Assembly: GCA_041662125.1 (NCBI GenBank)
Contig: JBAZTA010000003.1
Coordinates: 135,992-199,991, forward strand
DNA: 64,000 nucleotides
Direction: 5' to 3'
DNA from: Candidatus Omnitrophota bacterium
GTDB taxonomy: Bacteria > Omnitrophota > Gorgyraeia > Gygaellales > Profunditerraquicolaceae
A program made the position numbers and the translations under genes. The number at the start of each line of letters is the position of its first letter. Position 1 is the stretch's first letter. The notes below the pieces were generated by a model. It saw nothing but the letters and a program-made list of their open reading frames with translations. It had not been told where the DNA came from and did not search any database. Positions 30,901 to 50,391 of the stretch are shown in pieces.

Positions 30901-31113
30901 TTATTTTTCCGTCGCCGCTAAAGATAAAACATAATTTGAGAATTCATCTTTTACGAAAGGCCTGAGTTCTTTTTTTCTAATGTTATCAATCGTAACGATG
31001 ATCCGGCTTTTTTTGTTTTGCACCATAAAATCAGCAAGCCCCCGGTAATCTTTTATTGCTTTTTTGACAGAAGCCAGCGGATAAAAGTCTTCAGCAAAAG
31101 TGATTTTTAGCAT
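30901..31113 (-). CDS. small hypothetical protein (70 aa)
   Basis: No signal peptide. Its start overlaps the stop of the upstream gene by 7 nt. 'FSNYVLSL' weakly resembles the motif in the upstream neighbour. Confidence 0.35.
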   Translation of the reverse strand: MLKITFAEDFYPLASVKKAIKDYRGLADFMVQNKKSRIIVTIDNIRKKELRPFVKDEFSNYVLSLAATEK

Positions 31114-32123: not shown

Positions 32124-32140
32124 AGGTTAAAAGTATTTTG

Positions 32141-32608: not shown

Positions 32609-32622
32609 TTTCTCATGAGCCT

Positions 32623-33072
32623 CTAATCACACAGTAACCATCCTCCGCCCGGTGGCGGAGCCAACCAATTTACTAACCGTCCGGTTTGATCCATGACATT
32701 AATTAAAGTCATACCATATGGGCAACCAGACCATAAGTCAGGGGTATACACTTTCATAGCAACTCCGGGATTTGCATACCACCGTGTCCCATCATTATAA
32801 AAAAACATTAACAACGCGCTATTATAATAAATACTGCCTGGAATATTCCCCGGAGGAGCTGCAACCCTGGGAGAAAAAGCAATTGTTGCATCATCTGAAT
32901 TATTATGCATAGCACTTTCGCCGACATTAAGTTTGTGTACTTTAATGGAGTCGTAACTCCCAAAAGGCGAAGGATGGTAAGTGCTGATAACAATATCTTT
33001 ATCAGTAGCAAAGCTGATCGAATAATAACATAATAAAACAGCTAAACTTATGTAAATTTTACGCATATGCAT
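32623..33072 (-). CDS. secreted protein, paralog 3 (start trimmed to internal Met preceding the signal peptide)
   Basis: The ORF-track frame runs to 33258 but overlaps the upstream rSAM gene. The probable start is 'MHMRKIYISLAVLLCYYSISFA' (ATG 33070-33072 or 33064-33066). Mature 'TDKDIVISTYHPS...YD...PGSIYYN...FFY...W...APPPGGGWLLCD'. Confidence 0.55.
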   Translation of the reverse strand: MHMRKIYISLAVLLCYYSISFATDKDIVISTYHPSPFGSYDSIKVHKLNVGESAMHNNSDDATIAFSPRVAAPPGNIPGSIYYNSALLMFFYNDGTRWYANPGVAMKVYTPDLWSGCPYGMTLINVMDQTGRLVNWLAPPPGGGWLLCD

Positions 33073-33103: not shown

Positions 33104-34057
33104 TCAATTATTTTTATGAGGCACTGTAATAGCTTTAAACTCTTTAACACCAAACTGTTTCGTATAATATTTCCAGGCCCCTTCACAATATAAATTATAC
33201 ACGCAAATTTTACAACAAGCAAATTTAATTTTTGAGTCTCTTCTCCTTCTTTTTTCAATAAAAAATGATTCTCTTCCCCGAGTGCCTATCGCTGTTTTCC
33301 TTTGTCCATCCTTGAATTCACCAACTATACCTTGAAAATTCGGGATCCCGGCTAATATGCAAAAGGGGATATCTCCCACAGTGAGATTAAGTTTCATCTT
33401 TTTCGCAAGGCCAACTGCTGCAGTAAGATGCTTTTTTATTGCAGTATAGCGAGGTACTAATAAATCAAAATTACGCCGTCCTCTTCCTTCCGGATTAATA
33501 AAGTTTAGCCGAAAATCCCTTAATTGGAACTTTTGGGAGAAAAAGCGGATCATTTTCGAAAGATCACGGTAATTTAATTTATTAATAACTATATTGAGCA
33601 ATATATTATCTTTAATGATCCCTTTTTTTCTGAGTATTGCTAAATAACGCAGCCCTTGTGTTTTTTCAGAAAAGCCTCCTTTTACCGCGGTCAGAAAATC
33701 TTCGGTTGCGGCTTTATGGCTGTGAATAGAAATATAAAAGCGTGACGCTCCGGCCTGTATGATTTTTTTGAGGAATACCGCGTCAGAGTAACGCCTGCCG
33801 TTGCTGACCAAATAAACACCCTGGAATCCGAGCTTTCTGGCAAAGAGAATCGATTCTACGAGATGGGGGTATAGTGTCGGCTCACCTCCCAGAAAACCGA
33901 TCATACGGTAGCCCTGTTTGTAAAAATCCAGGAGCTCTTTTTTTACTTCTGTGACAGGGATGAATTTCTGCTCTTCGCGCGGGACGTCACTCATGCAAAA
34001 TTTGCAGCGGTTATTACAGAGAAACCCCAGGTTAATTTCAGCTTTTTTATCTTCCAT
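33104..34057 (-). CDS. radical SAM enzyme, roughly 300-aa 'type B' (N-terminal CxxxCxxC, C-terminal CxxC...C cluster)
   Basis: 317 aa. 'CNNRCKFC', 'LGGEPTL', and C-terminal 'CCKICVYNLYCEG' are present. Confidence 0.8.
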   Translation of the reverse strand: MEDKKAEINLGFLCNNRCKFCMSDVPREEQKFIPVTEVKKELLDFYKQGYRMIGFLGGEPTLYPHLVESILFARKLGFQGVYLVSNGRRYSDAVFLKKIIQAGASRFYISIHSHKAATEDFLTAVKGGFSEKTQGLRYLAILRKKGIIKDNILLNIVINKLNYRDLSKMIRFFSQKFQLRDFRLNFINPEGRGRRNFDLLVPRYTAIKKHLTAAVGLAKKMKLNLTVGDIPFCILAGIPNFQGIVGEFKDGQRKTAIGTRGRESFFIEKRRRRDSKIKFACCKICVYNLYCEGAWKYYTKQFGVKEFKAITVPHKNN

Positions 34058-34994
34058 GAAGTATTTTGGCCGTGATCGCTTCTTTACTCACAAATACAGG
34101 ATGAAGCTCTTTTGAGGAATAAAATTTGTCCATTTGATATAACCCGGGGCATATGCTGTCAAGGAAACAGGTTTTGCAGCAGTCTGTTTTGTCATATCCC
34201 CATTTTTTCTTCCAATCGTTTTCATAATGAAAACCGCGGTTGTCCAGGAAAAATGTTACGCGGTTCTCTTTTTTTACCAGTTTTCTGGTCTCATTGAGGA
34301 CGTGTTCAAACTCGGGAAGCGCGCAGAGCGGCAAGCGCTCTACTCTGAAAGTTTTATGGTGTTTTTCCAGGAATACCAGCGCACGGTGCAATGATAATTC
34401 AATTTCTGACAAGCGGGGTATCGTATCCGGATTTTCCTTGGCCCTGTCCATGTAGGGGTCAAGGTTATTCCAAACAAAATGGCGCACAAAGGAGAAGTTT
34501 TTTACGATCCAGGATACATTTTCATACAAATGGCCGGCATTATAGTGGTTGATCACGATATTCATATCAACTCTGATCTTTGGAAGTTTCTCTAAATTCC
34601 TTAAAGCTTTAATAATATTGTCCAGGGCGTCTTTGTTTTGAGTTAAAAACGATTGGATCTCTTTTTTATACGAATAAAAAGAAAGATGCAACTGCTGTAA
34701 TCCCGCTTTTTTCAACTCCAGCAGGTAAGAATAATCGGCTAACTTCTGCCCATTTGTGATGATACGGCAGGGCATGTTTTTTACCCGGCAATAGCTGATT
34801 AAATCACCTAAGAACGGAGAAAGTGTTGGTTCTCCCCCGGTAAATATGATCCCATCATAGGATTTCTTAATATAGAGATCGATTAATTTCTTGCCTTGTT
34901 CAAGGGTGAGTGTTTTTTTTGTCGGAGGATTCGAACAAAAACGGCATTGCTGGTTACATTCCCTGGTGAGTTGGATATACGCTAATGACGCCAC
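34047..34994 (-). CDS. radical SAM enzyme, type B paralog
   Basis: 315 aa. 'CNQQCRFC', 'FTGGEPTL', and C-terminal 'CCKTCFLDSICPG' are present. Confidence 0.8.
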   Translation of the reverse strand: MASLAYIQLTRECNQQCRFCSNPPTKKTLTLEQGKKLIDLYIKKSYDGIIFTGGEPTLSPFLGDLISYCRVKNMPCRIITNGQKLADYSYLLELKKAGLQQLHLSFYSYKKEIQSFLTQNKDALDNIIKALRNLEKLPKIRVDMNIVINHYNAGHLYENVSWIVKNFSFVRHFVWNNLDPYMDRAKENPDTIPRLSEIELSLHRALVFLEKHHKTFRVERLPLCALPEFEHVLNETRKLVKKENRVTFFLDNRGFHYENDWKKKWGYDKTDCCKTCFLDSICPGLYQMDKFYSSKELHPVFVSKEAITAKILHGR

Positions 34995-35037: not shown

Positions 35038-36231
35038 TCATATGTTTTTTAAGATCTTAAAGCCTTTTTCCCGTATCAGCCTGATAGGGGCTCCGTTGCA
35101 GTTTTTATGCGCTTTACAGAGATCGCACCTCAAGCTTTTCAAGAAAAACCTTTCATTGATAAAAAAATCCAAAAACGCGTTAATATCAATTGTGCCCTGC
35201 GTAAGAAATCGTTTGAACCTGCGCCGGTGCGTTTGAATGCAAACACCTGTTTCTTTTGACACTATTTGTTTATCTTTCTTTAGTTTGACCAGGTCGTTAC
35301 AAAAATCTTCGATAAAACAATAGCGGCATTGAGCTCCAAAGCACGGCATAAGTTCGCCTCGCTTGATAAACCGAGAAAACAGCGACATTCTTCCCCTGAT
35401 CTCATCTTTTAATTTTTCCGGGTGCTGGATCAATTCTTCAAATCCTTCCAAGAACCGGGCAGGGAACCGATTGGTCCAGATATAAATATCAGGGAACTCA
35501 TATTGCAGCTGAAAGGCTTTTTTGAGATACGGTGCGGCTGCAGGTATTGTATACAGGACTTTCTCCTTATTCTTCCAGGCAGAGCCAAACGGCGTCACTT
35601 GGAGCAGATCAAATTCGGTTATATTGCGAGAAATAAAAAATCTCATAATATCCTCCAGATGCCGATAATTGATCTTATTGATAACGATATCAATATTTAT
35701 AATCAGGCGGTTGGACTCCAATGCGTTTGTCAGTCCCGCCATTGCCTGCGCAAATGAACCTGTAACGCCTGATTGCTTCTCATAAAGCGTTTTCGTATGG
35801 CCGTGCATCGAAAAAGTTATTTCACTGACTCCCGCAGCGACTGCTTTATTGAGAAAAGACCGGTAGTAAAACATGCGGCCGTTTGTCACGACTTGGACCT
35901 GCGCATAGCCTAAGGTTTTTGCAAGTTCCACAATACGCAGGAAATGGGGATGCAGGGTAGGTTCTCCTCCTGAAAGGATAAGTTTAACAGAACCCTCAGA
36001 GATTCCCTGTTCCATTTCCTTTTTTAAGGCAAGAATGCTTCGAGAAGTTCCATTGTGATGAACGCTATCGAGGCAGAAAACGCAGTTGTTATTACAAAAA
36101 TTCGTCAATCGCAGCCAGAATTTTTTTTTCTGCGCGGCCTCTTTACGTTGCGTTATTCGAGTTTTTAACTGGTTCAAGCTCTTTATCTCCATAGAGTGAG
36201 TAATAGTGCTCAAATATCCCGCCGCAAACAC
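35038..36231 (-). CDS. radical SAM enzyme with extended Cys-rich C-terminus
   Basis: 397 aa. 'CNNNCVFC', 'SGGEPTL', and C-terminal clusters 'CFGAQCRYC...C' and 'CDLCKAHKNC' are present. An alternative start at ATG 36190-36192 would reduce the 89-nt overlap with the upstream gene. Confidence 0.75.
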   Translation of the reverse strand: MFAAGYLSTITHSMEIKSLNQLKTRITQRKEAAQKKKFWLRLTNFCNNNCVFCLDSVHHNGTSRSILALKKEMEQGISEGSVKLILSGGEPTLHPHFLRIVELAKTLGYAQVQVVTNGRMFYYRSFLNKAVAAGVSEITFSMHGHTKTLYEKQSGVTGSFAQAMAGLTNALESNRLIINIDIVINKINYRHLEDIMRFFISRNITEFDLLQVTPFGSAWKNKEKVLYTIPAAAPYLKKAFQLQYEFPDIYIWTNRFPARFLEGFEELIQHPEKLKDEIRGRMSLFSRFIKRGELMPCFGAQCRYCFIEDFCNDLVKLKKDKQIVSKETGVCIQTHRRRFKRFLTQGTIDINAFLDFFINERFFLKSLRCDLCKAHKNCNGAPIRLIREKGFKILKNI

Positions 36232-37066
36232 TCTTGTACAAACAACAACGGCATACGGCGGTCTTTATTCTTTTTCTTGTTGGACGCATGCATCTTTCTT
36301 CTTTTACATAGTTTTTTTTACCCGCGGCAAGTTCAAGCGTAAGGCGTTCATCCCAATAGAAATCGTTTGAATAACAGGCGAAATCACCTAAAATACAAGC
36401 CGGCATGCCAAAAAACCTGATAATACTTTTATGCGCATTAGCCTTTTTAATCAAAACCGGTATTTTTGTTTTGATTTCAGAGAGCCTGACGGCTAATGCT
36501 TGGTAATCGCGTAACCCTCTTCCTTCCGGAGCAAGATTCGAAAAAAGCATGTGTTTGATCTTTTTCTTCAAGAGAAATGTTTCTATTTTTTCGAGGGAAT
36601 TAAAATTAAGCCTGCTGATTACTGTGTTGCTAAAGATCCTGATCGGATAATCAGACAACCATGCTAATGCCCGGGATAGATTGCTAAAACTCCCCTGGGT
36701 TTTTACGATCATATTATGCTCTTTCGCCGAATGCCCATGGATGGAAAAACATACTTCATCAAGGTATGCGGCTACCTGTGAGCAAAACTTTTTTTCTGAA
36801 AATCTACCCCCATTAGTGCCCACGCGGATCGAATAACCCATTTTCCTGGTTTCCTGTGCCAGCTCCGTAAAAAACGGGACAAGGGTCGCTTCTCCTCCGG
36901 TAAAATGCACGCTCGTAAAGCCTTTCTTTTTCTTTTCTTTTAACAACGTAAGAATCGGATCAAGGGCAAGCGGTTGTCTGTGAAACCGGCCGATAGCATC
37001 GGAAGAACTGCAAAACACACATTTCTGTGAGCAGGTATATGAGATATGAAAGTCAATATGTTCCAT
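36143..37066 (-). CDS. radical SAM enzyme, type B paralog
   Basis: 307 aa. 'CSQKCVFC', 'FTGGEATL', and C-terminal 'CRCCLYKSVCGG' are present. Confidence 0.8.
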   Translation of the reverse strand: MEHIDFHISYTCSQKCVFCSSSDAIGRFHRQPLALDPILTLLKEKKKKGFTSVHFTGGEATLVPFFTELAQETRKMGYSIRVGTNGGRFSEKKFCSQVAAYLDEVCFSIHGHSAKEHNMIVKTQGSFSNLSRALAWLSDYPIRIFSNTVISRLNFNSLEKIETFLLKKKIKHMLFSNLAPEGRGLRDYQALAVRLSEIKTKIPVLIKKANAHKSIIRFFGMPACILGDFACYSNDFYWDERLTLELAAGKKNYVKEERCMRPTRKRIKTAVCRCCLYKSVCGGIFEHYYSLYGDKELEPVKNSNNAT

Positions 37067-37093: not shown

Positions 37094-39025
37094 TCATACA
37101 CGGCATTTCGCTTTAATCCGGCAAATCTCATCCGCCCCATAAAGAGTGCGATAGCCGTTAATGATTCCCAAACACTTTTGTTTGAATAAACATTCCTTGC
37201 ATTCTTTTAGTTTGATAAATCTTTGGTCAAGCAGGTAAATCTTCATTGAGTCGGAGATTTCGTCAGCGCTTTTAATCAGGTCTTTTTGAACTTTTTGTAC
37301 AACACAAAGGGGAAAAGCGACTAAACAATTTATTCCCTGTAAAAGGCTTTTTATATCTGCGTATGAAGGCATGAGGTTTTGCAGAGGCATATTTGCTGTT
37401 TTCGGCCTTACCGGCAACGCGATAAAGGGTTTATTCATCTCTCCCTTGACAAATTCTTCTAAGGCTAAAAGATGCCCTATATTCTGTTTTAATACATTGG
37501 TATGGATATACGTGCGCGCGCCGTATTCTGCCGCGTTTTTTATCCCCCGTAAGACTTTCCGGTAACTGCCCCTGGTTCCAACAATAGTATCATGAACGCG
37601 CGGGTCATTGGAAAAAAGCGGAAGTGAGAATGAACTGGCCCCCCGCTGAATGAGGCAACGCGTAAACGCCTTATCTGCCAAGCATTCCCCGGAGGTCATG
37701 ATCTCTATAGTTTCAAAGCCGTTGGTTTTTGCAAGTTCGACTACTTCAAATATATCGTCATATAAAAGAGGATCGTTGCCGATAACGCAGAGCTTTTTCA
37801 CGCGCAGGACTCTGTTTTCTTTAAGCTTTATTTTGATCCTTAACAGGTCAGCCTGCCCTTCCCCTTGTTTTTTGGTACAAAAGATGCAATCGTTCGCGCA
37901 GGGCCCATCGATGTATAAAAATAAAGAATTGATGCTTAATTGTTTGCTCTGCTCTTTTTGAAGCTTGAAAGCACCTCGTATGAACGGGATGAGCGCAGGA
38001 TGTTCATTCGAGCGTAAGGCTTCCTGAGGAGCTGCGTTAAAGAAATCATCGAGTGTAATCCCTAAGTCAATATTATTATCTAAGATGTCACGTTGCTTCA
38101 AAGAGCAGGCTTTATTAAATATTTTATACAAGCTGTATTTGGTTTTAAAGAACGAATCAATGTGTTGTTCCTGAAAGACATCTCCCAGGAAATAATATTT
38201 GCGTAACTCAGGGAATGTTTTCTCCATAAAAATAGCGGCGTCAAAATACATCTTGCCGTCTGTATCTACTAATATTTCCTGGCTCAACATCGTAGGTTCG
38301 CAGTGGTTGGTAAAATTCATCAGAAAAGAACTGCTTGCGGGCAGAGCGCGTATTTTGGCAAGTTCATTTATGAGCCGGTCTTTTTCATCCTTGAGCCAGC
38401 GTATGCCGGTCTGATAACAGAGTTGGATCCTCTCCACCGCATGTGTTCGCAGGAAACATATACTCTTTAATAATTCAGTTGTGGTATCCGGGGCCACGAC
38501 CATATTGACAAAAAAAGGGATACCGGATTTCTTCAGGCATTCTAAATTAGCCAGGAGCGGCCCATAATAATCCTGTTTATGCAAAGCAAACCGGTGCCGC
38601 AAAGTCAAGCGCCGGCCTCCGTCTAAAGAAAACATGATCTCGACCGGATATTTTTTAAGGAAGCTGATTTTTTTACTATCAAGGAGCAGGCCGTTCGTGG
38701 TTATCATAAAGGTGATCTTTTTTTTTCGTTTGAACGCCTGTTTTTGCGCGTATACAATTGCATCTTTGATGAAATCCCATTGTAATAACGGTTCCCCTCC
38801 CCAAAACCTAAGCCTGCATTCCGCTTCGTGAGTGCTTAAAAGTAGCGCTACCGCTTTGCGTAAGACAGGCCTGGTCATTGATGAGCTTGTGCGTCGTATT
38901 TCGCAATAATCACAGTTTAATTGGCAACGATAGGTACACATGATCATCAGGCTGTTAACGTACGTATGGTGTTGGGGTTCTAAAGAATCTCTCGTTATAT
39001 CAATAGTCAGGGTTTTTTTCTGCAT
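37094..39025 (-). CDS. double radical SAM fusion protein (type A N-domain plus type B C-domain)
   Basis: 643 aa. N-domain 'CTYRCQLNCDYC' and 'WGGEPLL' is a paralog of the 39970..41187 ORF. C-domain 'CANDCIFC' with terminal 'CKECLFKQKCLG' is a paralog of the 300-aa type B enzymes. Confidence 0.8.
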   Translation of the reverse strand: MQKKTLTIDITRDSLEPQHHTYVNSLMIMCTYRCQLNCDYCEIRRTSSSMTRPVLRKAVALLLSTHEAECRLRFWGGEPLLQWDFIKDAIVYAQKQAFKRKKKITFMITTNGLLLDSKKISFLKKYPVEIMFSLDGGRRLTLRHRFALHKQDYYGPLLANLECLKKSGIPFFVNMVVAPDTTTELLKSICFLRTHAVERIQLCYQTGIRWLKDEKDRLINELAKIRALPASSSFLMNFTNHCEPTMLSQEILVDTDGKMYFDAAIFMEKTFPELRKYYFLGDVFQEQHIDSFFKTKYSLYKIFNKACSLKQRDILDNNIDLGITLDDFFNAAPQEALRSNEHPALIPFIRGAFKLQKEQSKQLSINSLFLYIDGPCANDCIFCTKKQGEGQADLLRIKIKLKENRVLRVKKLCVIGNDPLLYDDIFEVVELAKTNGFETIEIMTSGECLADKAFTRCLIQRGASSFSLPLFSNDPRVHDTIVGTRGSYRKVLRGIKNAAEYGARTYIHTNVLKQNIGHLLALEEFVKGEMNKPFIALPVRPKTANMPLQNLMPSYADIKSLLQGINCLVAFPLCVVQKVQKDLIKSADEISDSMKIYLLDQRFIKLKECKECLFKQKCLGIINGYRTLYGADEICRIKAKCRV

Positions 39026-39100
39026 AGTATTTCCTTAGCCTTCCGACAGGGCATATGCTTTTATCTTTTGTTCAGGCTTATAGCTATTCTAAAACAATGA

Positions 39101-39979
39101 TTAATCTGTGAAATAACGTTTTTGCAGCCCCTTGCAGGAGTGCGCAAAACGGCAATCGACGCAAAATGGCCTTTTACTGAATAGCCTGTTGAATTTAGAC
39201 ATATAGGCTGATTTCTTTGTTTTTGCTTGGATCAAAGTATCTACTTCATGATTTTCTCTTATACTGGCCGGGTGAAAACCTTTAAGGTCGTTTTGCCTGC
39301 GGTTGGCTGATTCAGGATACAGTAAGCAGGGCGCAAAACCGCGAAAGACTATGCGAGCCTGGCGCAGGCCAAGAGTGCGTATACGGGTCAAATAATCTTT
39401 GATTTCCGGCAAACTCAAATGGCTCGCCTTGCCCTTTGGTATGATTTCTTCGGCGATTATAAAATCCCTGATTGATGCTTTATAGAGTGAAGTAATTGTT
39501 TTTTCCAAATCGCGATAATTAAAAGAGCTCAATACAGTGTTGATCCGTATCGAAATATCGAACTTTTTACGCAATGCGATAAGGTTGCGGATACCCGCTT
39601 TTGTTTCCCGGCAGCTTCCTGTTCTTTGAGTTATTCGATCATGTGTTATATCCCGTACGCTATACAAGGAAACCGCGAATTCATTGACACCAGCGATCAA
39701 TAAATCGCGGGTGAAAGCGGGGTTTTTCAATAATCGCGCGTTCGTGATGATTCCTATTGCACGAAAACCCCTTATTTTGCAGTGTTTAACTATTCGTATC
39801 AGCCCGCGCAACATCGTTACTTCCCCGCCGGTAAGGGTGATCGTCTGGCTTGTTTCTCGCGTCTTATTGATACTATGGTAAATTTGCTTAAGGGAGTTGC
39901 AACTGATAATGGCATGGAACTCATGCCGGGGGCAAAACAAACAATCATTATTGCACTTCAGGCTTAAGGTTATATCCAT
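39101..39979 (-). CDS. radical SAM enzyme, type B paralog
   Basis: 292 aa. 'CNNDCLFC', 'TGGEVT', and C-terminal 'CVDCRFAHSCKG' are present. Confidence 0.8.
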   Translation of the reverse strand: MDITLSLKCNNDCLFCPRHEFHAIISCNSLKQIYHSINKTRETSQTITLTGGEVTMLRGLIRIVKHCKIRGFRAIGIITNARLLKNPAFTRDLLIAGVNEFAVSLYSVRDITHDRITQRTGSCRETKAGIRNLIALRKKFDISIRINTVLSSFNYRDLEKTITSLYKASIRDFIIAEEIIPKGKASHLSLPEIKDYLTRIRTLGLRQARIVFRGFAPCLLYPESANRRQNDLKGFHPASIRENHEVDTLIQAKTKKSAYMSKFNRLFSKRPFCVDCRFAHSCKGLQKRYFTD

Positions 39980-41187
39980 AATTTCTTAATGAATATGCTA
40001 TATTGTGATCCAAGGTTTATGTTGTTGAGGATAATTTTCCTCATGCCTTGCCCCCCTGCACCATAGGCTCTTGATAAAAGGTAGAAATTAGTTAGTGGGC
40101 TTACGCTTAAAAGATTAATATTGCCTGCTTTTTTTACGTCTGTGACAAAGAACTTTTTTTTCATTGATTTAAAATCTTCTTCCAGGCATATCCCTGTTTC
40201 CCGGAAAATCTCTCCGTTACAGTCAACGGTGAGCTCCGCGTTTAACACGACAGGCTCTTTTCTTTCATCAGAAAAATTTAAAAACTTGATTTCTTTGTGC
40301 TTGCGCAGATAGCGAGCGATCTTCGCGGTCTCTTTAAAAAGTGTCGCTACAGCATTGTCAGGCCAGAAAACGCCAAGCGCGTAATTAGCCTGAAGTTTTT
40401 TGAACCCGAGTTTAACGAGGTATTTAAAACTTTCAAATAGTTTGCCGGCATCCTGAGGCATGAAAACGCTGATCGAATAATGAGGGAGCGTTGAATCAAA
40501 CAAAGCAGAGAAGTTCTTTGTAACAATGTCATAATAATTGTTTTCGTTTCGATGCCCCCTGTTCTTAAGTTGACGCTGTATTTCCCCGTCAATACTGCAT
40601 TCGACGCAAAAATTGTGTTTGGAGAAATAATCGATGGTTTCTTTCGTTAAACAAATGCCGTTTGTGGTCAAAAGAAAACTCACGGTTTTTTTTACAGCAG
40701 GCTTCAGGCTCCGGGCGTATGCAACGGCTTTTTTTATAAGGTCAAAGCGTAAAAGCGGTTCTCCGCCGAAAAATTGCAGTTGGATATGCCTGCGGTTACT
40801 GGTAAAGAGCAGATCTATGGATTGACGTAATACCCTCTCATCCATGGAGTCAGTGTACTTTTTCACCCGGCAGTAGCGGCAGCGCAACTGGCAGCGGTGA
40901 GTCAACAGGACGATTAACCGCTCAGGCGGCTGAAAGATCCTTTCTTCAAGCAGGCTGGCCGCAAGCATGCGCGTCCGAAGCAGCCTTTTATAAACTAAAC
41001 CCCGCAGATCATGGTATCGATTAACAAGAATTTCCAGCTGTTTTACTGTCTTGTTTGCTTTGTTTTCTAAAAGCAAACATTCTTTCTTGACCAAGAGCGA
41101 GTACAGTATGGATTCCGCGCGCTCCAGTTTTCTTATGTCAAAATCAAAGATAAATGATTGTAACAAGCCTTCAATTCGATTGACCAT
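39970..41187 (-). CDS. radical SAM enzyme, type A (stand-alone)
   Basis: 405 aa. 'LTHRCQLRCRYC' and 'FGGEPLLRFDL' are present. It aligns by eye with the N-domains of 37094..39025 and 44873..46660 and with the C-domain of 41171..43948. Confidence 0.8.
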   Translation of the reverse strand: MVNRIEGLLQSFIFDFDIRKLERAESILYSLLVKKECLLLENKANKTVKQLEILVNRYHDLRGLVYKRLLRTRMLAASLLEERIFQPPERLIVLLTHRCQLRCRYCRVKKYTDSMDERVLRQSIDLLFTSNRRHIQLQFFGGEPLLRFDLIKKAVAYARSLKPAVKKTVSFLLTTNGICLTKETIDYFSKHNFCVECSIDGEIQRQLKNRGHRNENNYYDIVTKNFSALFDSTLPHYSISVFMPQDAGKLFESFKYLVKLGFKKLQANYALGVFWPDNAVATLFKETAKIARYLRKHKEIKFLNFSDERKEPVVLNAELTVDCNGEIFRETGICLEEDFKSMKKKFFVTDVKKAGNINLLSVSPLTNFYLLSRAYGAGGQGMRKIILNNINLGSQYSIFIKKLWI

Positions 41188-43948
41188 TTTTCTTGAAATA
41201 TGCCCCGGTTAATTTGCCCATGGTAATATTATTTAAAATTACTTCTTTGCTGTGGGTATCCTGGTAATAGTTTAAGAGATGGTATAAAATCAGGAATTTA
41301 GAGATCACGATATCATTTATATCCCTACAGGCTGCAATGGTAGTAACCGGCGGGAGGCGTGATTTTGTTTTATTTTCGAATAATAAATCAGTCAAAAAAT
41401 AGATCGAGCCATCACAATCGACCATTATCTCTGCGTTTAAGACCGCCGGTTCAACCCGTGACCCCCCATTGCTTAATCGAACAATGCCTTTTTTAATAAA
41501 CCGGCCGGCTTTCTTTTGAATGATATCAAGTTCGCGAAAAAAAATCTTTCGGGAAGCTTCGTCCCAGATAGTGCCGAGGGAATAATTAATCCCGATATTC
41601 CTGATGCCTAACGTCAAAAGATGGTAGAAATTGCGTGAAAGGTGTTTCACTGTCCCGGGAGTAGTGACCATGACTGCATAATGCGGGATATTCCGGCATA
41701 AGATATACTGCAGCCGGGATGTTGTCACTTGATACGGATTCTTGACGCGCGAGCAGGCTTTATTGCGGTTATGGAATGATTCTTCGCCGTCAATTGATAA
41801 TTCAAGAAAAATATCTTCTTTTGCCAGGAAATCAGCTATCTCTTTGTTAAGCGCTATAAGGTTGGATACCAGGTAAAAGGATATCTTCTTATTCTTTTTC
41901 TGAGCGATCTTTTTTGCGTAGTGTACTCCTTGTTTGAGGAGATCAAAGCGTAATAAAGGCTCTCCTCCCGTGAAATCAAGCCTCAAATGCTGCCTTCGGG
42001 AAGTAAAGAGCAAATCGATCGATTTACGCAACGTATTTTCATCCATATCAGCATTGCGCTTGGTGATTGGGCAATAGGCGCAGCGCAACTGGCATCTTCT
42101 GGTGAGCATCAGTTGGATATTACATCTGCTATTCCCGATTCCTCTGCCGGTTTTTTTGCGGATAATTTCTGGGTATGAGGCGAATTCATCGATTACGCGC
42201 GTTATCGCATCTTTTGCAGTCGGCAGGCGCTCCTTGAGCAAAAGCAATTCAAAAAGAAAATCATCAAGAATTTTGATGTAATCCGCCTCTGACCTAAAAA
42301 GGCCATCTAAAAAAGGTATCATTGCCTTGACCGCTTTATCCATAGGTATGTCATGGTTAATGAGAGGATAATCAAACTCGGGGTACCCCTTGACAGTCAG
42401 CTTTCTGGTAACAGCTAAGTATCTGTTGAGATTGTTTAAGCGAGCGATCCTATAGCTGGCAGAAGGAAAAAGCGAGACTAAATACGGGATGATCGGCGTT
42501 AGGATCCCAAAAAACCTGCCGCATGAAATTTGAAATTGCGCTATCGATATTAAATTAACGACAATGTTTTTAAGCGATGTTGCATGATTACTGGCGATAA
42601 AATGGTGGCTTTGATTGATTTTCTTTCTCGATAATACGCGTACTACTTTTTCGATTTTTACAGCAGTATAGCCTTTTCCCAGCCTTTGTAACTCTTCGTC
42701 GCAAAAATTTTCAGACCCCAGGTATATATTTTGCTGTTTTCGGGAAAAAGCAGAGGCAGATATATGCGTGAGCAGTTTTGTATCAAGCGAGGCAGTCCTG
42801 CGTCCGCGCTTTACGGTATAAAATGAATTAATTCCCGCTTGGAAAAAATTGACTTTAAAAGGCGTGCGGGGAAGGTAATCGAAGAATAACGCCGCTCTTT
42901 TGGCATCAGCAAAGAAATCGTCGTCATGGAATGAGATCTGGAGGGCAGTTTGAGGAATTGACCGCGGAAAAAGATGCTTAAGCCGGCTGTAATAATCCTT
43001 AAGGATGAGTTTTATGTTTTGAAAACTTTTACCGCAGTACTGCCCTTTCCCGGGAGTTGTGCAAAAAAAACAATTATTAAAACAGCCGCGGGAAGTGTAC
43101 AGGTTTATTCCCTCCTGCACATTTTCCTTCTCGATAAAACTAAAATCAAGAATTGAGGCGTCATAATTTTTAAGGCAATTTACTTTATCGAGGTTAGCAA
43201 TAATGAGCTGGGATGAATTCTGAAATATAAAGCCGTTAAGCTGCAAAAGGCTTTCTATGCGCGCCTGGGATAAGGCGCTATCTGGATGAAATCCGGTTAA
43301 ACATTTGACGATTTGAGGAAAAATGTACTCACCGCTGCCTCTTACTAAAAAATTGACACGGGGTAAATGGATGAAGGTGTGCTCAGGTGTGAGTGTCGGC
43401 ATAACACCTCCGACTCCAATAAAAGAGCGTGTTCGCCGCGATAGAAAATCGATCAATGCTTTCACCTGGCGGAAATAATCTTCACAAAGGCTGATTCCGA
43501 CGCAGAGTATATCCGGATTATTCATTAAGAGCGTTTCTAATTCGTTTTTTCCGGTAATAAACTTATCTGGATCAAGGGAAACTTTTGCGTCACTGAGAAG
43601 AACGGATATTCCCGATTTTTTTAAACCCGAAGCTAAGTATAAAGTGCCCGCGCTTATCCAATTTGTATTTTCTTTATTGCCTGAATTGTAAATATTCTTA
43701 AAGAGGAGCACTTTGGGTACGCGCAGCTTGTAGCCGGATGTCCGCTTCTTTTCTTTATGATGAGCCTGTTTGCCTGTTGAAAGTTCGATGATCGCAGGCG
43801 TGCCACTTTTTTTATAATACGTATTCGCAATTTTAAGCAGGTAAGCATTTTGAAGCTGGCAGTAGCCTTGCGTGCCGTTAAAACACAGGGAACCTGAAAA
43901 TGCAACGCTATCAGTTAGTTTGAGGCAGAGAGATTTTTTACGAAGCAT
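41171..43948 (-). CDS. tri-domain protein: B12-binding domain, class-B-like radical SAM, and type A radical SAM
   Basis: 925 aa. The N-terminal Rossmann-like cobalamin-binding region ('VLLFKNIYN...LYLASGLKKSGISVLL...IGVGGVMPTLTPEH') is followed by 'YTSRGCFNNCFFCTTPG'. Near residue 600 a second core starts: 'LTRRCQLRCAYC', 'FTGGEPLLRFDL'. Confidence 0.75.
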   Translation of the reverse strand: MLRKKSLCLKLTDSVAFSGSLCFNGTQGYCQLQNAYLLKIANTYYKKSGTPAIIELSTGKQAHHKEKKRTSGYKLRVPKVLLFKNIYNSGNKENTNWISAGTLYLASGLKKSGISVLLSDAKVSLDPDKFITGKNELETLLMNNPDILCVGISLCEDYFRQVKALIDFLSRRTRSFIGVGGVMPTLTPEHTFIHLPRVNFLVRGSGEYIFPQIVKCLTGFHPDSALSQARIESLLQLNGFIFQNSSQLIIANLDKVNCLKNYDASILDFSFIEKENVQEGINLYTSRGCFNNCFFCTTPGKGQYCGKSFQNIKLILKDYYSRLKHLFPRSIPQTALQISFHDDDFFADAKRAALFFDYLPRTPFKVNFFQAGINSFYTVKRGRRTASLDTKLLTHISASAFSRKQQNIYLGSENFCDEELQRLGKGYTAVKIEKVVRVLSRKKINQSHHFIASNHATSLKNIVVNLISIAQFQISCGRFFGILTPIIPYLVSLFPSASYRIARLNNLNRYLAVTRKLTVKGYPEFDYPLINHDIPMDKAVKAMIPFLDGLFRSEADYIKILDDFLFELLLLKERLPTAKDAITRVIDEFASYPEIIRKKTGRGIGNSRCNIQLMLTRRCQLRCAYCPITKRNADMDENTLRKSIDLLFTSRRQHLRLDFTGGEPLLRFDLLKQGVHYAKKIAQKKNKKISFYLVSNLIALNKEIADFLAKEDIFLELSIDGEESFHNRNKACSRVKNPYQVTTSRLQYILCRNIPHYAVMVTTPGTVKHLSRNFYHLLTLGIRNIGINYSLGTIWDEASRKIFFRELDIIQKKAGRFIKKGIVRLSNGGSRVEPAVLNAEIMVDCDGSIYFLTDLLFENKTKSRLPPVTTIAACRDINDIVISKFLILYHLLNYYQDTHSKEVILNNITMGKLTGAYFKKNGQSN

Positions 43949-43971
43949 TGTATAATCAAATCGTTTTAAAA

Positions 43972-44886
43972 CTACTCAATTACTGGTTTAAATTCAACCC
44001 AACCGTTTCGTTTTATATATGGTTCCCAGACGCCATCACAGATGGTAGCGTAAATACATTTTTCACAAGAAACCCCTTTTATTCTTTTGGGGTTCCTGCG
44101 TTCAACCCTCACATTTTTATTTTTGCTTAATAAAATCGATTCGAAGCTACCCAAGAGGTTCTCAAATCCTCTTAATACGCATGCCGGTAACCCAACGATA
44201 CCTATGCCGACCCTGCGATGTGATCTGGCATCAAGTTTTAACGCAGTAACGGAATTCTTAAAAGCTTCGGCCAAAAACGTGTAGTTAGGGCTCAAACGGT
44301 TTAAAAAAAACAATCCATTGCCAGCGGGTATAACGCAATTTACACCGATACTTTCTACAGATTTAAAACCGAGCGCTAAACGATAAAAATCAATCAGGTT
44401 AGAAGCATTTATCGCATTAAGCGTTATATTAATCCGCCAAATAAAATTGTTTGTTTGTCTTAAAATATCAAGATTCCCGCAGGCTTTCGTTGTTTGTTCA
44501 AAACTCCCCTTGGTACGGGTTAAGGCATCATGAATTTTACTGGTACTCCCATGGAGAGAGACTATTATTTCAGTAATCCCGCTTGATAACAAGGCTTTTG
44601 CATAGTGTATATAGCTCAGGCGCCTCGCGTTGGTGATCAAGCGGATGTTTGAATAACCTGCTGCCCTCGCAGTTTTTATATACTCTGTGAGAGAGTCATT
44701 GACGGTTGGTTCAGGCCCTGTGAAAATAATGTTTTTTGTCCTGCGGACGCCTTTTTTTAAAAGCTGATGAAGCTGACGGGGTGATTTCGCAGTACTGCTA
44801 TGATTAACCTTATCGATGCAAAACAAGCAATTGTTATTACAGCGGTCATTAATAATACACTGGAGCGTAACTTCATTTTGCAGCAT
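43972..44886 (-). CDS. radical SAM enzyme, type B paralog
   Basis: 304 aa. 'CNNNCLFC', 'TGPEPTV', and C-terminal 'CEKCIYATICDG' are present. Confidence 0.8.
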   Translation of the reverse strand: MLQNEVTLQCIINDRCNNNCLFCIDKVNHSSTAKSPRQLHQLLKKGVRRTKNIIFTGPEPTVNDSLTEYIKTARAAGYSNIRLITNARRLSYIHYAKALLSSGITEIIVSLHGSTSKIHDALTRTKGSFEQTTKACGNLDILRQTNNFIWRINITLNAINASNLIDFYRLALGFKSVESIGVNCVIPAGNGLFFLNRLSPNYTFLAEAFKNSVTALKLDARSHRRVGIGIVGLPACVLRGFENLLGSFESILLSKNKNVRVERRNPKRIKGVSCEKCIYATICDGVWEPYIKRNGWVEFKPVIE

Positions 44887-46660
44887 GGGTGCCTTTCACC
44901 GGGACAAATTCATTCCAACCGAAAAAAGCGGGATATTCAATCCACGTTCCTTCACAGCGGGCATAATAGATGCAGTTTTTGCAGTTTTCTGCTTTAGTTT
45001 TTGCTAAGCCAGGACGAAGCTTGTCAAAATCAATTATTTCGTCAGGAAACTCGTAGATTTTAGTAGACGGGATACAGCGTTCCGCGATAAACCTGTTATA
45101 AGAACCCAGCATGCAAGAGGGTATTGCTTCAGTCATTACCGTAATACCGGCGTTTATGCCGATGGTTAGGGCTTCTTTGATATAGGGGATCACTAAGCTC
45201 ATGCGCGGGACTATAGAATTGAAATTTTCAGCGGCAGAGCCGAGCGCATGGACGAAAGCTAACTGGAACTGTTTTACCCCCAGATATACCAAAAGCCGCG
45301 CGATTTCAGGAAGCTGCCGATAATTCGATTGAGTAATAACCGTGTTTGAATAAACCGGTACGTTAAGCTTGGTCAAATTTGTAATTGCTTTGACGGTTTG
45401 AGCAAAACTTCCCGGGGTAGATGTAAGATAATCATGCATCGCAGGAATATGCCCGTGAATGGCGACCCCAAATTCATTGGCGCCTGAATCGATTGTTTTA
45501 ACACAAAAATCTTTATACGCGAACATGCGGGCGTTCGTCTGGATCTGTATCCTGCGGTAACCCAATTTCTTTGCAAAGCTCACAAGCGTAAAAAAATCCT
45601 CACGGATCGTAGGCTCGCCTCCGGTGAAAACAACTCCGTTAGAAGTTGCCCGCGCTTCTCGCAGTATTTTCTGAACATCGTGCGTTGACTTATCCTGCAG
45701 TATTTCTTTTTTCTTGCCTTGAACGCAGAATTTACAATTGTTATTGCACGAATATCCGATTTTAATATCCGCCCGAACGATCTTGATCTTGAGGCTATCC
45801 ACAAAATTACACAATAACCGGTCAACAATGTAGGTATCGCTTATGATATCTTTGGAAAAGGCCTTTTTGATTATTATCGGCATTTGGCGCGCATCAAAGC
45901 GCAATGCGCTATTCGATATAGAATTGACGTGCCCAAGAAATAACTTATTTTTTTCGTTAGCCATGTTCTTAAAAAGGACGCAATTGCTTGCGTAGAAGTT
46001 TCCAAAGGGATCACAGGTCAGCCCGGTATTAAAAAGCGGGACATCTCCTTTTACCTCTGAATTCTTAAAATAGATTTCTGGTTTGTCGCATGCAAACAGA
46101 GAGATCTTTTTGAATTGGCGTTCTAAGTTTTTTATGTGGAGCCCCTTCCAGTCCACATAGTAATTCGGTAAAATGTTAAAACGCCTGAAACCTGACGCAT
46201 AGAGTTTTTTGAAATCAGAAAAAGCATGACAGGCGCCTTTTGGCGTGATATTAACGGTAATGGTTAAGAAAGGATACTTGGGAAGCGTAAGCGTGGCTTT
46301 GATTTTCTTGATATGGTAGGAATCAACCACGATTTCTATCTCGTGTTTCAAGCAAAATTTCACTATTGTTTCATCAATGAGAGTGCCATTGGTAGCCAGG
46401 ACAAAATTGATTCTTTTATGGAGCCGGCGCGCAATATGATCCGCGTAGATGACTATATCTTTGAGCAGCGAAACCTCAAGAAGCGGTTCTCCTCCAAAAA
46501 ACTTTATCGTCTTCTGTTCTCCGTGAGTCTGTAAAAAGAACAAAACCGCTTTCCGGGCGATCTCCTTTTTTATTGAAATATTTGTTTTCTCGATGCCGCA
46601 AAAAGAACAGCCTTCGTTGCAATTTTGAGTTAAAACAAGAGTCAGGAAAGTATTGTCCAC
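44873..46660 (-). CDS. double radical SAM fusion protein (type A N-domain plus type B C-domain)
   Basis: 595 aa. N-domain 'CNEGCSFC'/'FGGEPLL'. C-domain 'CNNNCKFC'/'TGGEPTI' with terminal 'CKNCIYYARCEG'. Confidence 0.8.
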   Translation of the reverse strand: MDNTFLTLVLTQNCNEGCSFCGIEKTNISIKKEIARKAVLFFLQTHGEQKTIKFFGGEPLLEVSLLKDIVIYADHIARRLHKRINFVLATNGTLIDETIVKFCLKHEIEIVVDSYHIKKIKATLTLPKYPFLTITVNITPKGACHAFSDFKKLYASGFRRFNILPNYYVDWKGLHIKNLERQFKKISLFACDKPEIYFKNSEVKGDVPLFNTGLTCDPFGNFYASNCVLFKNMANEKNKLFLGHVNSISNSALRFDARQMPIIIKKAFSKDIISDTYIVDRLLCNFVDSLKIKIVRADIKIGYSCNNNCKFCVQGKKKEILQDKSTHDVQKILREARATSNGVVFTGGEPTIREDFFTLVSFAKKLGYRRIQIQTNARMFAYKDFCVKTIDSGANEFGVAIHGHIPAMHDYLTSTPGSFAQTVKAITNLTKLNVPVYSNTVITQSNYRQLPEIARLLVYLGVKQFQLAFVHALGSAAENFNSIVPRMSLVIPYIKEALTIGINAGITVMTEAIPSCMLGSYNRFIAERCIPSTKIYEFPDEIIDFDKLRPGLAKTKAENCKNCIYYARCEGTWIEYPAFFGWNEFVPVKGTHAAK

Positions 46661-46743: not shown

Positions 46744-48237
46744 TTATTGTGAACCGGCTGGTAATGTGTAATTTGCCCATTTATAAAACAATTTCTTTAC
46801 CTTTGTATTCCTTAATTTATCAAACAAAAAGTCAAGTATCCCTTTATTGATTATGCAGCGGGGATTTGAACTTATATGAGAAAAGATATTGCCTTCATAC
46901 GACCAGTTAAATATAGGGCAAACTCCGCAGTAGGGTTTATACGCGCATAAATCACAGCTGGTGTTATCCAGGCAGGAAGCCATACTTAAGACTTTTACCG
47001 TAGAATGGTTCACGATTTCTTTGTATTTATTTTTTGATACATTCCCTATGCAGAATATTTCATCGCCGACCATTCGCCCTTCATCGCAGGTATAGACCTT
47101 TCCGTCATAGTTATAGAGCAGTTGGCCTATCCCGGCACCGCAGGGAGAACGCAACTCAAGAAAATTCGGGTCATAGTCGGTAATGATCTTGGCAAGGAAT
47201 ATCTTAGCGGTGTTCTCATGAAAATGGCTTTTGGGGTGTTTTAACGCGTAGGATATGACACGGTTAAGTGCCCGCGTATAGAATTTCAAGTATTCTTGCG
47301 GGGTATAGCCGATATCTTCCCACATGTTTTTCGCGATACCCAGGGGAGTCATCGGGCGCAAAAAAATAAATTCAAGGCCCCTTGTAATATATTCATTGAC
47401 GATTGCTTCAGGGCATTTCAAAGAATCTTTGCTTACGGTAAGAAGAGCCCCGGGCTTGAATTTATTATCAAGTTTTGATTTGTAAACTTTTTGGGCTTTT
47501 TTGAGCCAGCGAACCGCTTGACGATGATTATTCCCTTTGCTCCAGATACGGTTCTTATTATGGATATGTTCCGGGCCATCAAGAGAAGTACAAACAGTAA
47601 CTGAGTTTGCTACGAGAAATTTAAGTTTTGCCTCATCCATTAAAGAAAAGTTAGAAACAAGCCGTAGCTCAAGATTCTTCTTTTCCACCTTGTTCTTGGT
47701 TTTACTGTATTCAATAATGAATTTAACGGTTTGCCAATTAAGCAGCGGTTCGCCTCCCTGAAACTCAAGAGCAATTGTTTTCGAAGGAGACAAAAAGATC
47801 ATATCGACGATTTTTTTGGCGGTGGCGATGTCCAGGTCAAAGCCTTTTTCTGATTCTGCTCGGGACGAGCTTTGGCAATAAATACATTTTTGATTACAGC
47901 GCAGCGTGACAACGATGATATGCAGAGACGGGCCCTGCCATAAGAATAAATTCTTTTTCTGGTATTTTAACACAATATCCGCAGTATTGATCTTATCCCG
48001 GATCAATCCTTGTGTCTTTAATATTTCAAAGATCGGGCCATGCTGAGGCAACGTTCCTTCCAGAAAACTCGTAAAATTCTTTTCGGAGAGTATCACGTAT
48101 TCTCCGACATCATTGGTGAGCAGATAATCGGATGCGCCCTGTTTTTTAAATCTAAAAAATCCGACTTTCTCCCAATCAACTTTTTTTATTATAGATTGAT
48201 TCATGTTCGCTCCTGTATCCAATGCTCCTTTACTCAA
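46744..48237 (-). CDS. radical SAM/SPASM-domain enzyme (anSME/HxsB-like maturase) with an N-terminal extension of about 95 aa
   Basis: 497 aa. 'LRCNQKCIYC', 'QGGEPLL', and the C-terminal SPASM pattern 'CGAG...C' and 'CDLCAYKPYCGVC' are present. Confidence 0.75.
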   Translation of the reverse strand: MSKGALDTGANMNQSIIKKVDWEKVGFFRFKKQGASDYLLTNDVGEYVILSEKNFTSFLEGTLPQHGPIFEILKTQGLIRDKINTADIVLKYQKKNLFLWQGPSLHIIVVTLRCNQKCIYCQSSSRAESEKGFDLDIATAKKIVDMIFLSPSKTIALEFQGGEPLLNWQTVKFIIEYSKTKNKVEKKNLELRLVSNFSLMDEAKLKFLVANSVTVCTSLDGPEHIHNKNRIWSKGNNHRQAVRWLKKAQKVYKSKLDNKFKPGALLTVSKDSLKCPEAIVNEYITRGLEFIFLRPMTPLGIAKNMWEDIGYTPQEYLKFYTRALNRVISYALKHPKSHFHENTAKIFLAKIITDYDPNFLELRSPCGAGIGQLLYNYDGKVYTCDEGRMVGDEIFCIGNVSKNKYKEIVNHSTVKVLSMASCLDNTSCDLCAYKPYCGVCPIFNWSYEGNIFSHISSNPRCIINKGILDFLFDKLRNTKVKKLFYKWANYTLPAGSQ

Positions 48238-49604: not shown

Positions 49605-49618
49605 GTGAGTAATATTTG

Positions 49619-50359: not shown

Positions 50360-50391
50360 GCGTTATCAACTCCTTTGCGAACTTACGATGC

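Follow-up and report, generated by a model that had tools for sequence, protein, structure and literature searches.

A 64,000-nucleotide stretch of DNA from a Candidatus Omnitrophota bacterium (positions 135,992 to 199,991 of contig JBAZTA010000003.1, assembly GCA_041662125.1), which we call the window, contains a dense array of radical S-adenosylmethionine (rSAM) enzyme genes. Every gene between 28564 and 48237 lies on the minus strand and, because neighboring genes are separated by at most 83 nt or overlap, as calculated from their coordinates, the region is probably a single operon. It comprises 19 genes, 11 of which encode rSAM proteins with a total of 14 cores: HxsB (also A0), four further domains of one class (type A, A1-A4), eight of a second class (type B, B1-B8) and one domain called X. 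Read 5' to 3', the rSAM order is HxsB, A1-B1, B2, X-A2, A3, B3, A4-B4, B5, B6, B7 and B8, with hyphens marking fusions. The CxxxCxxC motif is retained in all 14 cores, and all 11 rSAM genes pass the PF04055 gathering score; for open reading frame (ORF) 41171-43948, PF04055 itself reports only the A2 half, and the X core has the motif plus a B12 domain. The operon reads as follows, with L numbers standing for comparison loci and aa for amino acids.

46744..48237 (-): HxsB (A0), rSAM/SPASM maturase, first gene of the operon; TIGR03978, 475.8 bits against a cutoff of 370
45791..46660 (-): A1, N-terminal half of the A1-B1 fusion; core CNEGCSFC
44873..45790 (-): B1, C-terminal half of the A1-B1 fusion; core CNNNCKFC and a four-Cys C-terminal site
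43972..44886 (-): B2, stand-alone type B rSAM; ortholog clade with L001, 100% bootstrap
42179..43948 (-): X, B12-binding domain and rSAM core CFNNCFFC; N-terminal part of ORF 41171-43948
41171..42178 (-): A2, C-terminal part of ORF 41171-43948; core CQLRCAYC; ortholog clade, 100% bootstrap
39970..41187 (-): A3, stand-alone type A rSAM with an N-terminal extension of ~90 aa; ortholog clade, 91% bootstrap
39101..39979 (-): B3, stand-alone type B rSAM; ortholog clade, 95% bootstrap
37976..39025 (-): A4, N-terminal half of the A4-B4 fusion; core CQLNCDYC
37094..37975 (-): B4, C-terminal half of the A4-B4 fusion; core CANDCIFC and a four-Cys site
36143..37066 (-): B5, stand-alone type B rSAM; ortholog clade, 100% bootstrap
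35038..36231 (-): B6, stand-alone type B rSAM, start codon uncertain; ortholog clade, 100% bootstrap
34047..34994 (-): B7, stand-alone type B rSAM; ortholog clade, 100% bootstrap
33104..34057 (-): B8, stand-alone type B rSAM; groups with B1, 100% bootstrap
31575..33072 (-): three paralogous Sec-signal proteins of ~149, 155 and 182 aa; lineage-specific insertion
31107..31556 (-): HxsD-like small protein; TIGR03976, 41 bits against a cutoff of 50
30901..31113 (-): HxsD_rel, 70-aa HxsD-like protein; NF038315, 56.9 bits against a cutoff of 41
30143..30886 (-): 247-aa Cys-rich signal-peptide protein, directly upstream of HxsA4 with a 1-nt gap
29803..30141 (-): HxsA4 repeat protein, presumed substrate; NF038313, 87.2 bits against a cutoff of 55
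28564..29748 (-): polytopic membrane protein of A24 type (prepilin-peptidase-like), closing the operon; candidate leader peptidase

Double-core proteins of the operon

A first-pass annotation of the window had proposed that two ORFs each carry two complete rSAM cores, type A followed by type B, and both motif positions and Pfam matches confirm this. In the 643-aa product of 37094-39025 (A4-B4), CQLNCDYC lies at residue 34 and CANDCIFC at residue 376, and in the 595-aa product of 44873-46660 (A1-B1), CNEGCSFC lies at residue 14 and CNNNCKFC at residue 305. Each protein contains two separate Radical_SAM stretches (E = 3.9e-32 and 2.1e-29), a two-core architecture that is far beyond chance. There is a third fusion, ORF 41171-43948 (925 aa), in which the X core (CFNNCFFC, residue 289) precedes the type A core of A2 (CQLRCAYC, residue 619). 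Upstream of CFNNCFFC, residues 97-213 match PF02310 (32.8 against a cutoff of 32.1), and the X domain also has a weak match to BchE among the NCBIfam models. X has the layout of a class B rSAM enzyme, an N-terminal B12-binding domain and then the rSAM core, and is predicted to use cobalamin. The first-pass typing of the stand-alone genes (39970 as type A; 39101, 43972, 36143, 34047 and 33104 as type B) holds, although the strict alternation of types is at odds with the gene order. Its list was also incomplete: 35038-36231 is type B as well, and 46744-48237 is a fifth A-like enzyme, HxsB with its SPASM domain.

The core cysteines are conserved in both halves of the A-B fusions. Across 35 orthologs of A1-B1, C14, C18, C21 and the F55/G56/G57/P59 residues are invariant and E58 is nearly so; A1 has no other invariant Cys, while in B1 both the core (C305/309/312) and a C-terminal set (C516/560/563/569) are invariant. 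B4 shows the same pattern in 34 orthologs (C376/380/383 and C574/609/612/618). An AlphaFold2 model of A4-B4 is of good overall quality (predicted local distance difference test score, pLDDT, 88.8; predicted template modeling score, pTM, 0.81), with a low-confidence linker near residue 335. Searching the whole model with Foldseek returned anSME, CteB and ChlB as top matches (E = 1e-15 to 1e-12, ~345-395 columns) and a weaker group at about E = 1e-8 made up of BlsE, MoaA, viperin and SkfB. We attribute the first set to the A4 half, since CteB is a sequence match of A3, and the second to the B4 half, since BlsE and SkfB are sequence matches of B1.

The public Joint Genome Institute (JGI) gene call for 37094-39025 (P0121) is 594 aa long, 92% of the 643-aa ORF; a start at the next in-frame Met (residue 50), which would lose the first core, gives this length, and we infer that it is the one used. 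The 643-aa start is backed by orthologs. Several type B genes in NCBI annotations of metagenome-assembled genomes (MAGs; L001 and L006) likewise have starts that are too short and cut off the CxxxCxxC motif.

Type A and type B domains

The two recurring rSAM classes described in the first-pass annotation are kept well apart by both comparison methods. In all-versus-all BLASTP, scores are 58-203 bits among type A domains, mostly 48-136 bits among type B domains (the lone low outlier is B4-B7, at 26 bits) and at most 35 bits between the classes. Profiles of the ortholog groups aligned with hhalign score 146-507 within type A (HxsB included), 174-429 within type B and 25-107 between them. A1-A4 are 25-38% identical to one another and 27-31% identical to the HxsB core, and mutual identity among B1-B8 is 20-32%. 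As the same annotation supposed, the separated domains prove to be paralogs within each class when aligned and placed in trees. With SCIFF-type maturases and canonical HxsB as outgroups, A1-A4 form a clade (64% bootstrap) separate from HxsB (100%) and from the SCIFF-type maturases.

The best NCBIfam models for type A are PapB, HxsB, CcpM and the SCIFF maturase, with all scores below cutoff (A3, for instance, reaches 146 bits on PapB and 101 bits on HxsB), and in a PDB sequence search A3 matches CteB (5wgg) at E = 1e-20. The seven-Cys SPASM motif, which binds two auxiliary 4Fe-4S clusters, is absent from A1-A4. Since no Cys outside the core is conserved in the window domains or in the 34-35 orthologs of each A-B fusion, the SPASM clusters have been lost; only HxsB carries a SPASM domain (PF13186, 23.6 against a cutoff of 21.5). 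Judged from sequence, type A is related to HxsB, PapB and CteB but has a SPASM region without cysteines.

Type B points in a different direction. For all eight domains the top NCBIfam match is HxsC4 and/or HxsC; HxsC4 is best or second-best for most of them and sixth for B7, whose top match is HxsC. B1 scores highest, with 179.7 bits on HxsC4 against a cutoff of 500 and 136 on HxsC against 267.9, and the remaining domains score 54-163 bits on these models. The identification of B1 as HxsC4 proper was rejected: ten stand-alone B1 orthologs score only 146-195 bits against the cutoff of 500. The closest solved sequences are BlsE, SkfB, Tes and PqqE, with BlsE (7vob) nearest to B1. Type B domains share a four-Cys C-terminal site, PxC...CxxCx5C; in B6 the PxC cysteine is absent and an extra C-terminal CxxCx5C motif is present. 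Type B therefore has the look of an HxsC/HxsC4-like enzyme with a putative four-Cys auxiliary-cluster site. Public records label A and B proteins "MoaA/NifB/PqqE/SkfB family" or "sulfatase maturation enzyme AslB", and NCBIfam has no family models for A1-A4, B1-B8 or the fusions. The SPASM-less type A lineage and the unmodeled B1-B8 ortholog groups are thus gaps in current annotation.

Distribution, fusion states and history of the paralogs

The system occurs in Omnitrophota and in other small-celled, uncultured microbes. We found ~45 full-length orthologs of A1-B1 (39-74% identity) and ~55 of A4-B4 (29-69% identity), all from metagenomes or MAGs. The full gene order, flanks included, was found again in a Ca. 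Omnitrophota MAG (L007, 62-92% amino acid identity), in a JGI contig and in GCA_041643015.1 (L001/L087). A scan of species-representative genomes gave 75 loci, ~40 of which have 4-16 A/B-type cores inside 22 kb, from Omnitrophota, Spirochaetota, Elusimicrobiota, Schekmanbacteria, several phyla from the candidate phyla radiation (CPR), Woesearchaeota and one Methanosarcinales MAG; further cluster examples come from Actinobacteria and Diapherotrites MAGs. Clusters of 6-16 cores that include HxsD, HxsB and HxsA4 are present in MAGs of Spirochaetota, Elusimicrobiota, Schekmanbacteria, CPR, Woesearchaeota, Diapherotrites and Actinobacteria. Those of CPR, DPANN and Schekmanbacteria contain HxsB, A1, B1 and several B-only paralogs (B2, B5-B8) and lack X, A2, A3, A4, B3 and B4, which form an accessory module found only in Omnitrophota, Spirochaetota, Elusimicrobiota and one MAG labeled Planctomycetia. 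L003 was rejected as a minimal HxsD-65aa-HxsB-A1B1 system because the locus begins at a contig end and the related L006 has other rSAM genes upstream. In a Gracilibacteria MAG (L051), the cluster is split into many short ORFs under translation table 11, which probably reflects stop-codon recoding in that lineage.

Neighboring modules are fused in some lineages and split in others, as the first-pass annotation expected when it wrote of occasional fusion. A1-B1 is fused in the window, in L001, L003, L006, L007 and L046 and in Spirochaetota MAGs. A1 and B1 are adjacent yet separate in two Omnitrophota loci (L010 and L011), in CPR and in Schekmanbacteria; Elusimicrobiota have them separate, with the order reversed, and in archaeal loci the two lie on opposite strands. 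A4-B4 is fused in all loci with a clear ortholog. Relatives extend the A4-B4 theme to A-A4-B4 (P0124, 1026 aa) and to a four-core protein of 1296 aa (L012, 8981-12868). L011 also encodes a three-core single polypeptide (8045-10993), GCA_041643015.1 a 1304-aa protein with at least two cores (from L001 19839 to L087 2964), and P0042 is an A1-B1 fusion with a C-terminal methyltransferase. This fused-versus-separate ("Rosetta-stone") pattern argues that A and B act together. Natural fusions such as A1-B1, A4-B4, X-A2 and the three- and four-core proteins predict working partners and offer single-polypeptide constructs for reconstitution. Other domains have joined the family as well: B1 orthologs in P0050, P0053 and the Elusimicrobiota loci L019-L023 carry an uncharacterised, cysteine-poor C-terminal domain of ~300 aa, and L005 and L013 encode a 1152-aa protein in which a GT2 glycosyltransferase is joined to a B3-like core.

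We examined the history of the paralogs with distance-based, neighbor-joining (NJ) trees with bootstraps, and used hhalign between ortholog-group profiles as a second test. For every window domain, A1-A4 and B1-B8, there is a specific ortholog in other loci that is 38-69% identical, compared with 21-38% among the window paralogs, and each forms its own clade in the NJ trees with 91-100% bootstrap. Because orthologs from different phyla are closer than the paralogs within the window, and each has its own clade, the expansion is ancient, the duplications predating the divergence of these phyla, and each copy is under separate purifying selection. The modular shuffling of rSAM domains that the first-pass annotation suggested does not hold as a recent event in this genome, since each paralog has its own ortholog in other phyla. 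That every paralog is an ancient, separately conserved ortholog group argues that the A and B paralogs perform distinct, non-redundant steps.

In the model of the same annotation, an A+B unit was copied again and again, its members sometimes fusing, and each resulting pair might act on its own repeat or substrate. The two A-then-B fusions and the adjacent A3 and B3 genes do resemble such pairs, and A2, A3 and A4 form a tight clade with 100% bootstrap. However, the operon has five A domains and eight B domains, leaving B2 and B5-B8 unpartnered, and clusters of CPR, DPANN and Schekmanbacteria have one A1 against four to eight B genes. The trees of the two classes also disagree. NJ and hhalign both place the A domains as (HxsB,(A1,(A4,(A2,A3)))), from which duplication of a unit would predict B2, B3 and B4 to be mutual closest relatives. 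Instead, B1 is the hub of the B profile scores (B1-B6, 429; B1-B8, 420; B1-B2, 357); it groups with B8 at 100% bootstrap and also with B6, and B2 and B3 are not sisters. B3 and B4 do sit in one accessory module and come together weakly in the NJ tree (21% bootstrap), but their profile score of 189 is among the weakest between B domains. Because the deep B nodes are weak (5-41% bootstrap), we regard repeated unit duplication as not supported rather than refuted, and as unlikely; a unit duplication limited to A3B3 and A4B4 might still have taken place.

Relation to His-Xaa-Ser systems

Several genes of the operon place it among the His-Xaa-Ser (HXS) systems. HxsB, above its family cutoff, shares 33-34% identity with the canonical Aeromonas and Leptospira proteins along the whole of its length. 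HxsA4 belongs to the HxsA family and carries 13 SHG repeats, which can be read as H-G-S; its build is a conserved N-terminal leader, a hydrophobic helix and a tail ...GRHV(SHG)13QW. The HxsD/HxsD_rel family is represented by HxsD_rel (30901-31113), and the HxsD-like protein (31107-31556) is 29% identical to Aeromonas HxsD, its L006 ortholog scoring 70.8 bits on TIGR03976. NCBIfam holds "type 4" models for HxsA4 (NF038313), HxsD_rel (NF038315) and HxsC4 (NF038332), which show that curators already know of a "type 4" variant; the window proteins pass the first two, and the B domains and B1 orthologs tested (54-195 bits) miss the HxsC4 cutoff of 500. The suggestion that the locus makes a ribosomally made, post-translationally modified peptide (RiPP) fits an operon that encodes the HxsA4 repeat protein, HxsB, HxsD and an HxsD-like protein. 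We conclude, with a probability of about 70%, that these enzymes form the core of a "type 4" Hxs maturation operon, greatly expanded, in an Omnitrophota bacterium.

From its co-occurrence with the enzymes, HxsA4 is most likely the substrate of the rSAM proteins. HxsA4-type proteins lie in or beside more than 20 rSAM clusters; the orthologs share the leader K..[IL]K.FL.SEE[GA]K[IV], the hydrophobic helix and an (SHG)5-25 stretch that finishes with GQW, SRW or AW. A protein database holds 336 HxsA4-like protein clusters, some already named HxsA4 by NCBI. Matches of HxsA4 to collagen and Scl adhesin models (PF01391, NF038329) were discarded as low-complexity artefacts of the SHG repeat. A/B pairs that each act on a different repeat would have to work on identical SHG units, and repeats and cores do not stand one to one (25 repeats and 13 cores in L006, 12 and 14 in L007; counts per locus are lower bounds, since flanks and contig ends cut loci short). 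The two numbers are loosely correlated (Spearman rho 0.68, p = 0.002, n = 18 loci), which would favor such pairs; we do not take it as support because it is uncorrected for phylogeny and many of the loci are truncated.

Other small proteins were also weighed as substrates. The three Sec-signal ORFs (32623-33072, 32141-32608 and 31575-32123, minus strand) are paralogs whose mature N-termini share the motif E/D-I-x-I-T/S-T-Y-x-P-S, and each has a Cys close to its C-terminal end. In family-model scans neither they nor the 247-aa Cys-rich protein matched any family, and their homologs occur only in L007 and a JGI contig (3300075153). Because they are present in the closest relatives only, we place all four outside the conserved system and rejected them as substrates.

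The last gene of the operon suggests how HxsA4 might be processed. The protein encoded by 28564-29748 scores 17.5 on PF01478, below the Pfam threshold of 26.5, but 8 of 10 orthologs match this family (best E = 1.4e-5) and the other two match Arc_PepC. D20 and D87 are invariant, the latter within a GDAKL (A-G-D-A-K-L) motif; A24 peptidases have two catalytic Asp residues, of which the second lies in a GxGD/GDxK-type motif. In ~15 loci, drawn from several phyla, the cluster ends with an A24-type gene, and an atypical protein of this type of ~390 aa closes the bacterial and archaeal clusters of L003, L007, L010, L034, L036, L037, L039, L048, L068 and L087. It may cleave the conserved leader of HxsA4.

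The canonical system offers both a precedent and a contrast. The first account of HXS (HxsD-HxsB-HxsC-HxsA) was the bioinformatic one of Haft and Basu (cited in PMC9062424), and the system has since been characterized as an antiphage system that blocks DNA entry (PMC13128918, Nat Commun 2026). In that study the four-gene D-B-C-A layout occurs in >99.8% of HXS systems, 99.7% of which are in Pseudomonadota; the E. coli system requires both HxsB and HxsC, HxsC binds HxsD, and the repeat protein is matured by two rSAM enzymes, with a change of +8 Da on one repeat (PMC13128918). The window operon resembles it in having an HxsB above cutoff, an HxsD-type protein, a second class of rSAM enzyme that is HxsC-like, and a His-Xaa-Ser repeat protein whose N-terminal part serves export or processing. 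In both, two rSAM classes are present, and in canonical HXS both are needed for one protein substrate; by analogy, A and B are probably functional partners as HxsB and HxsC are.

The differences are equally clear. In place of the D-B-C-A layout, which we compared using canonical loci L082 and L083, the window has a 19-gene operon, and in place of two rSAM genes it has 11, with 14 cores. Canonical HXS has no counterpart to the A enzymes that lack SPASM cysteines, the B12-rSAM, the second of the HxsD-like proteins or the A24-type peptidase. Canonical HxsA has five basic HxS repeats and a peptidoglycan-binding domain, whereas HxsA4 has 13 uniform SHG units, a hydrophobic helix and no such domain. 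Canonical HXS is found on conjugative plasmids and almost wholly in Pseudomonadota; the window-type operon has chromosomal synteny among housekeeping genes and occurs in Omnitrophota, CPR, DPANN and similar lineages. PADLOC reported only generic viperin-like (pVip) rSAM similarity at the locus.

Two further comparisons help to place the fusions and the type A enzymes. FbiC, a CofG+CofH fusion of F420 biosynthesis, exists as separate genes in some lineages and as one polypeptide in others. Its two rSAM domains are mentioned in PMC11917521. The window fusions are similar in that two different rSAM enzymes of one pathway are separate or joined depending on the lineage. In contrast to FbiC, which is one pair acting on a small molecule and is homologous to A and B at superfamily level only, the operon has three different fusions, and its relatives have up to four cores per protein. 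Type A shares its fold and best sequence matches with SPASM/twitch maturases (CteB and the SCIFF maturases, PapB, anSME), yet A1-A4 lack SPASM cysteines, form their own clade and score below every family cutoff. Our literature searches found no paper describing a multi-rSAM cluster of this kind, the type A lineage or the tandem fusions.

What the analysis shows directly are the identities of the domains, the make-up of the operon, the orthology, the distribution and the fusion states; beyond these, we infer a substrate, an order of steps, a chemistry, a route of processing and a biological role. HxsA4, with its leader, hydrophobic helix and (Ser-His-Gly)13 tail, would be made ribosomally in the cytoplasm, where HxsD and the HxsD-like protein would serve as adaptors that present it to the rSAM battery. 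These enzymes would modify the His/Ser/Gly repeats, likely by cross-links and by C-methylation through the B12 enzyme. The A24-type membrane aspartyl peptidase would then cut off the leader, and the modified His-rich tail would come to lie on the outer side of the cytoplasmic membrane. Cyclophane formers such as FxsB and XyeB cross-link three-residue aromatic-X-X motifs, whose form H-x-S shares, a likeness that we offer as a lead only; His-to-Ser cross-linking and B12-dependent C-methylation are likewise leads and not results. PMT_2-type enzymes glycosylate exported Ser/Thr-rich proteins, and the PMT_2 and glycosyltransferase genes of some related clusters would fit an exported Ser-rich protein.

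Several observations weigh against reading the operon as an expanded Hxs system. All eight B domains stay below the curated cutoffs of HxsC (267.9) and HxsC4 (500), and canonical HxsC is just 21-26% identical to them. The HxsD-like (41 against 50) and A24-like (17.5 against 26.5) proteins of the window also fall below their family cutoffs. Action on HxsA4 has to be presumed for all, or indeed any, of the 14 cores, and the comparators are MAGs or metagenome contigs throughout, with taxon labels as deposited. Finally, some related clusters contain glycosyltransferases and U32 peptidases, and the nearest solved relatives of type B include the small-molecule enzymes BlsE, MoaA and viperin.

These last points raise the question of whether the A and B enzymes, as mere neighbors of a small Hxs core (HxsD, HxsB, HxsA4), instead produce or decorate something other than a peptide, such as a sugar, nucleotide, lipid or cofactor. 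In favor of this are the likeness of B domains to BlsE, MoaA, viperin and Tes in both sequence and fold, the presence of GT2, GT9, PMT_2 and U32 genes in related clusters, and the fusion of one B3-like core to a GT2 domain. Against this, the A domains belong to the peptide-maturase group (CteB, PapB, anSME, ChlB) and are covalently joined to B domains; in each of the phyla examined the multi-rSAM block comes with HxsA4, HxsD and HxsB; and PMT_2 is equally compatible with a protein substrate. We consider a non-peptide product very unlikely. That several paralogs are dead scaffolds or pseudo-enzymes, the chemistry being left to HxsB and a single B domain, B1, as the equivalent of HxsC, could account for the loss of all SPASM cysteines in A1-A4 and the high divergence of B3 and B4, but it is scarcely credible when CxxxCxxC is kept in all 14 cores, the core Cys and GGEP-type SAM motif are invariant or nearly so in both fusion families (34-35 orthologs, several phyla) and every paralog is retained as its own ortholog group.

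An expanded Hxs operon would apply the logic of HXS on a larger scale, with 14 cores here and 16 elsewhere acting on an even simpler substrate. The system is kept as one-to-one orthologs in Omnitrophota, Spirochaetota, Elusimicrobiota, CPR and DPANN. For genomes as small as those of CPR and DPANN, ~20 kb given over to rSAM genes is a heavy investment and implies an important envelope-related function. More speculatively, and with the odds against it, up to 16 rSAM cores, working as a conserved series, might turn the very simple ribosomal repeat (Ser-His-Gly)n into a heavily cross-linked or alkylated poly-imidazole polymer that is freed from its leader by a prepilin-peptidase-like enzyme and displayed at the surface of bacteria and archaea that are ultra-small and often depend on a host (Omnitrophota, CPR, DPANN). 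If so, such a polymer would be a protein-derived surface material or cofactor of a new class, which could for instance bind metal or DNA or attach cells to a host, and neither a conventional RiPP nor a mobile defence system; each A-B fusion would in that case mark an obligate radical step that takes two enzymes.

The operon sits among housekeeping and pilus genes in a window of even GC content. On one flank are MtaB, RsmE, DsbD, AmmeMemoRadiSam and a type IV pilus/type II secretion system (T2SS) block, and on the other are GatCAB, an S41 protease and TsaD. Immediately upstream, 48342-53685 contains two further rSAM genes, those for MtaB and the AmmeMemoRadiSam rSAM, the latter accompanied by a fused Memo-AMMECR1 protein of 509 aa; counting both, the window has 16 rSAM cores in ~26 kb. 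The type IV pilus/T2SS-like genes at 53912-62986 encode pilins with an N_methyl motif, T2SSF, T2SSE, a secretin and PilM, and the Hxs cluster of GCA_041643015.1 is likewise flanked by pilus/T2SS genes (L001, 1-1102; L087, 12194-20255).

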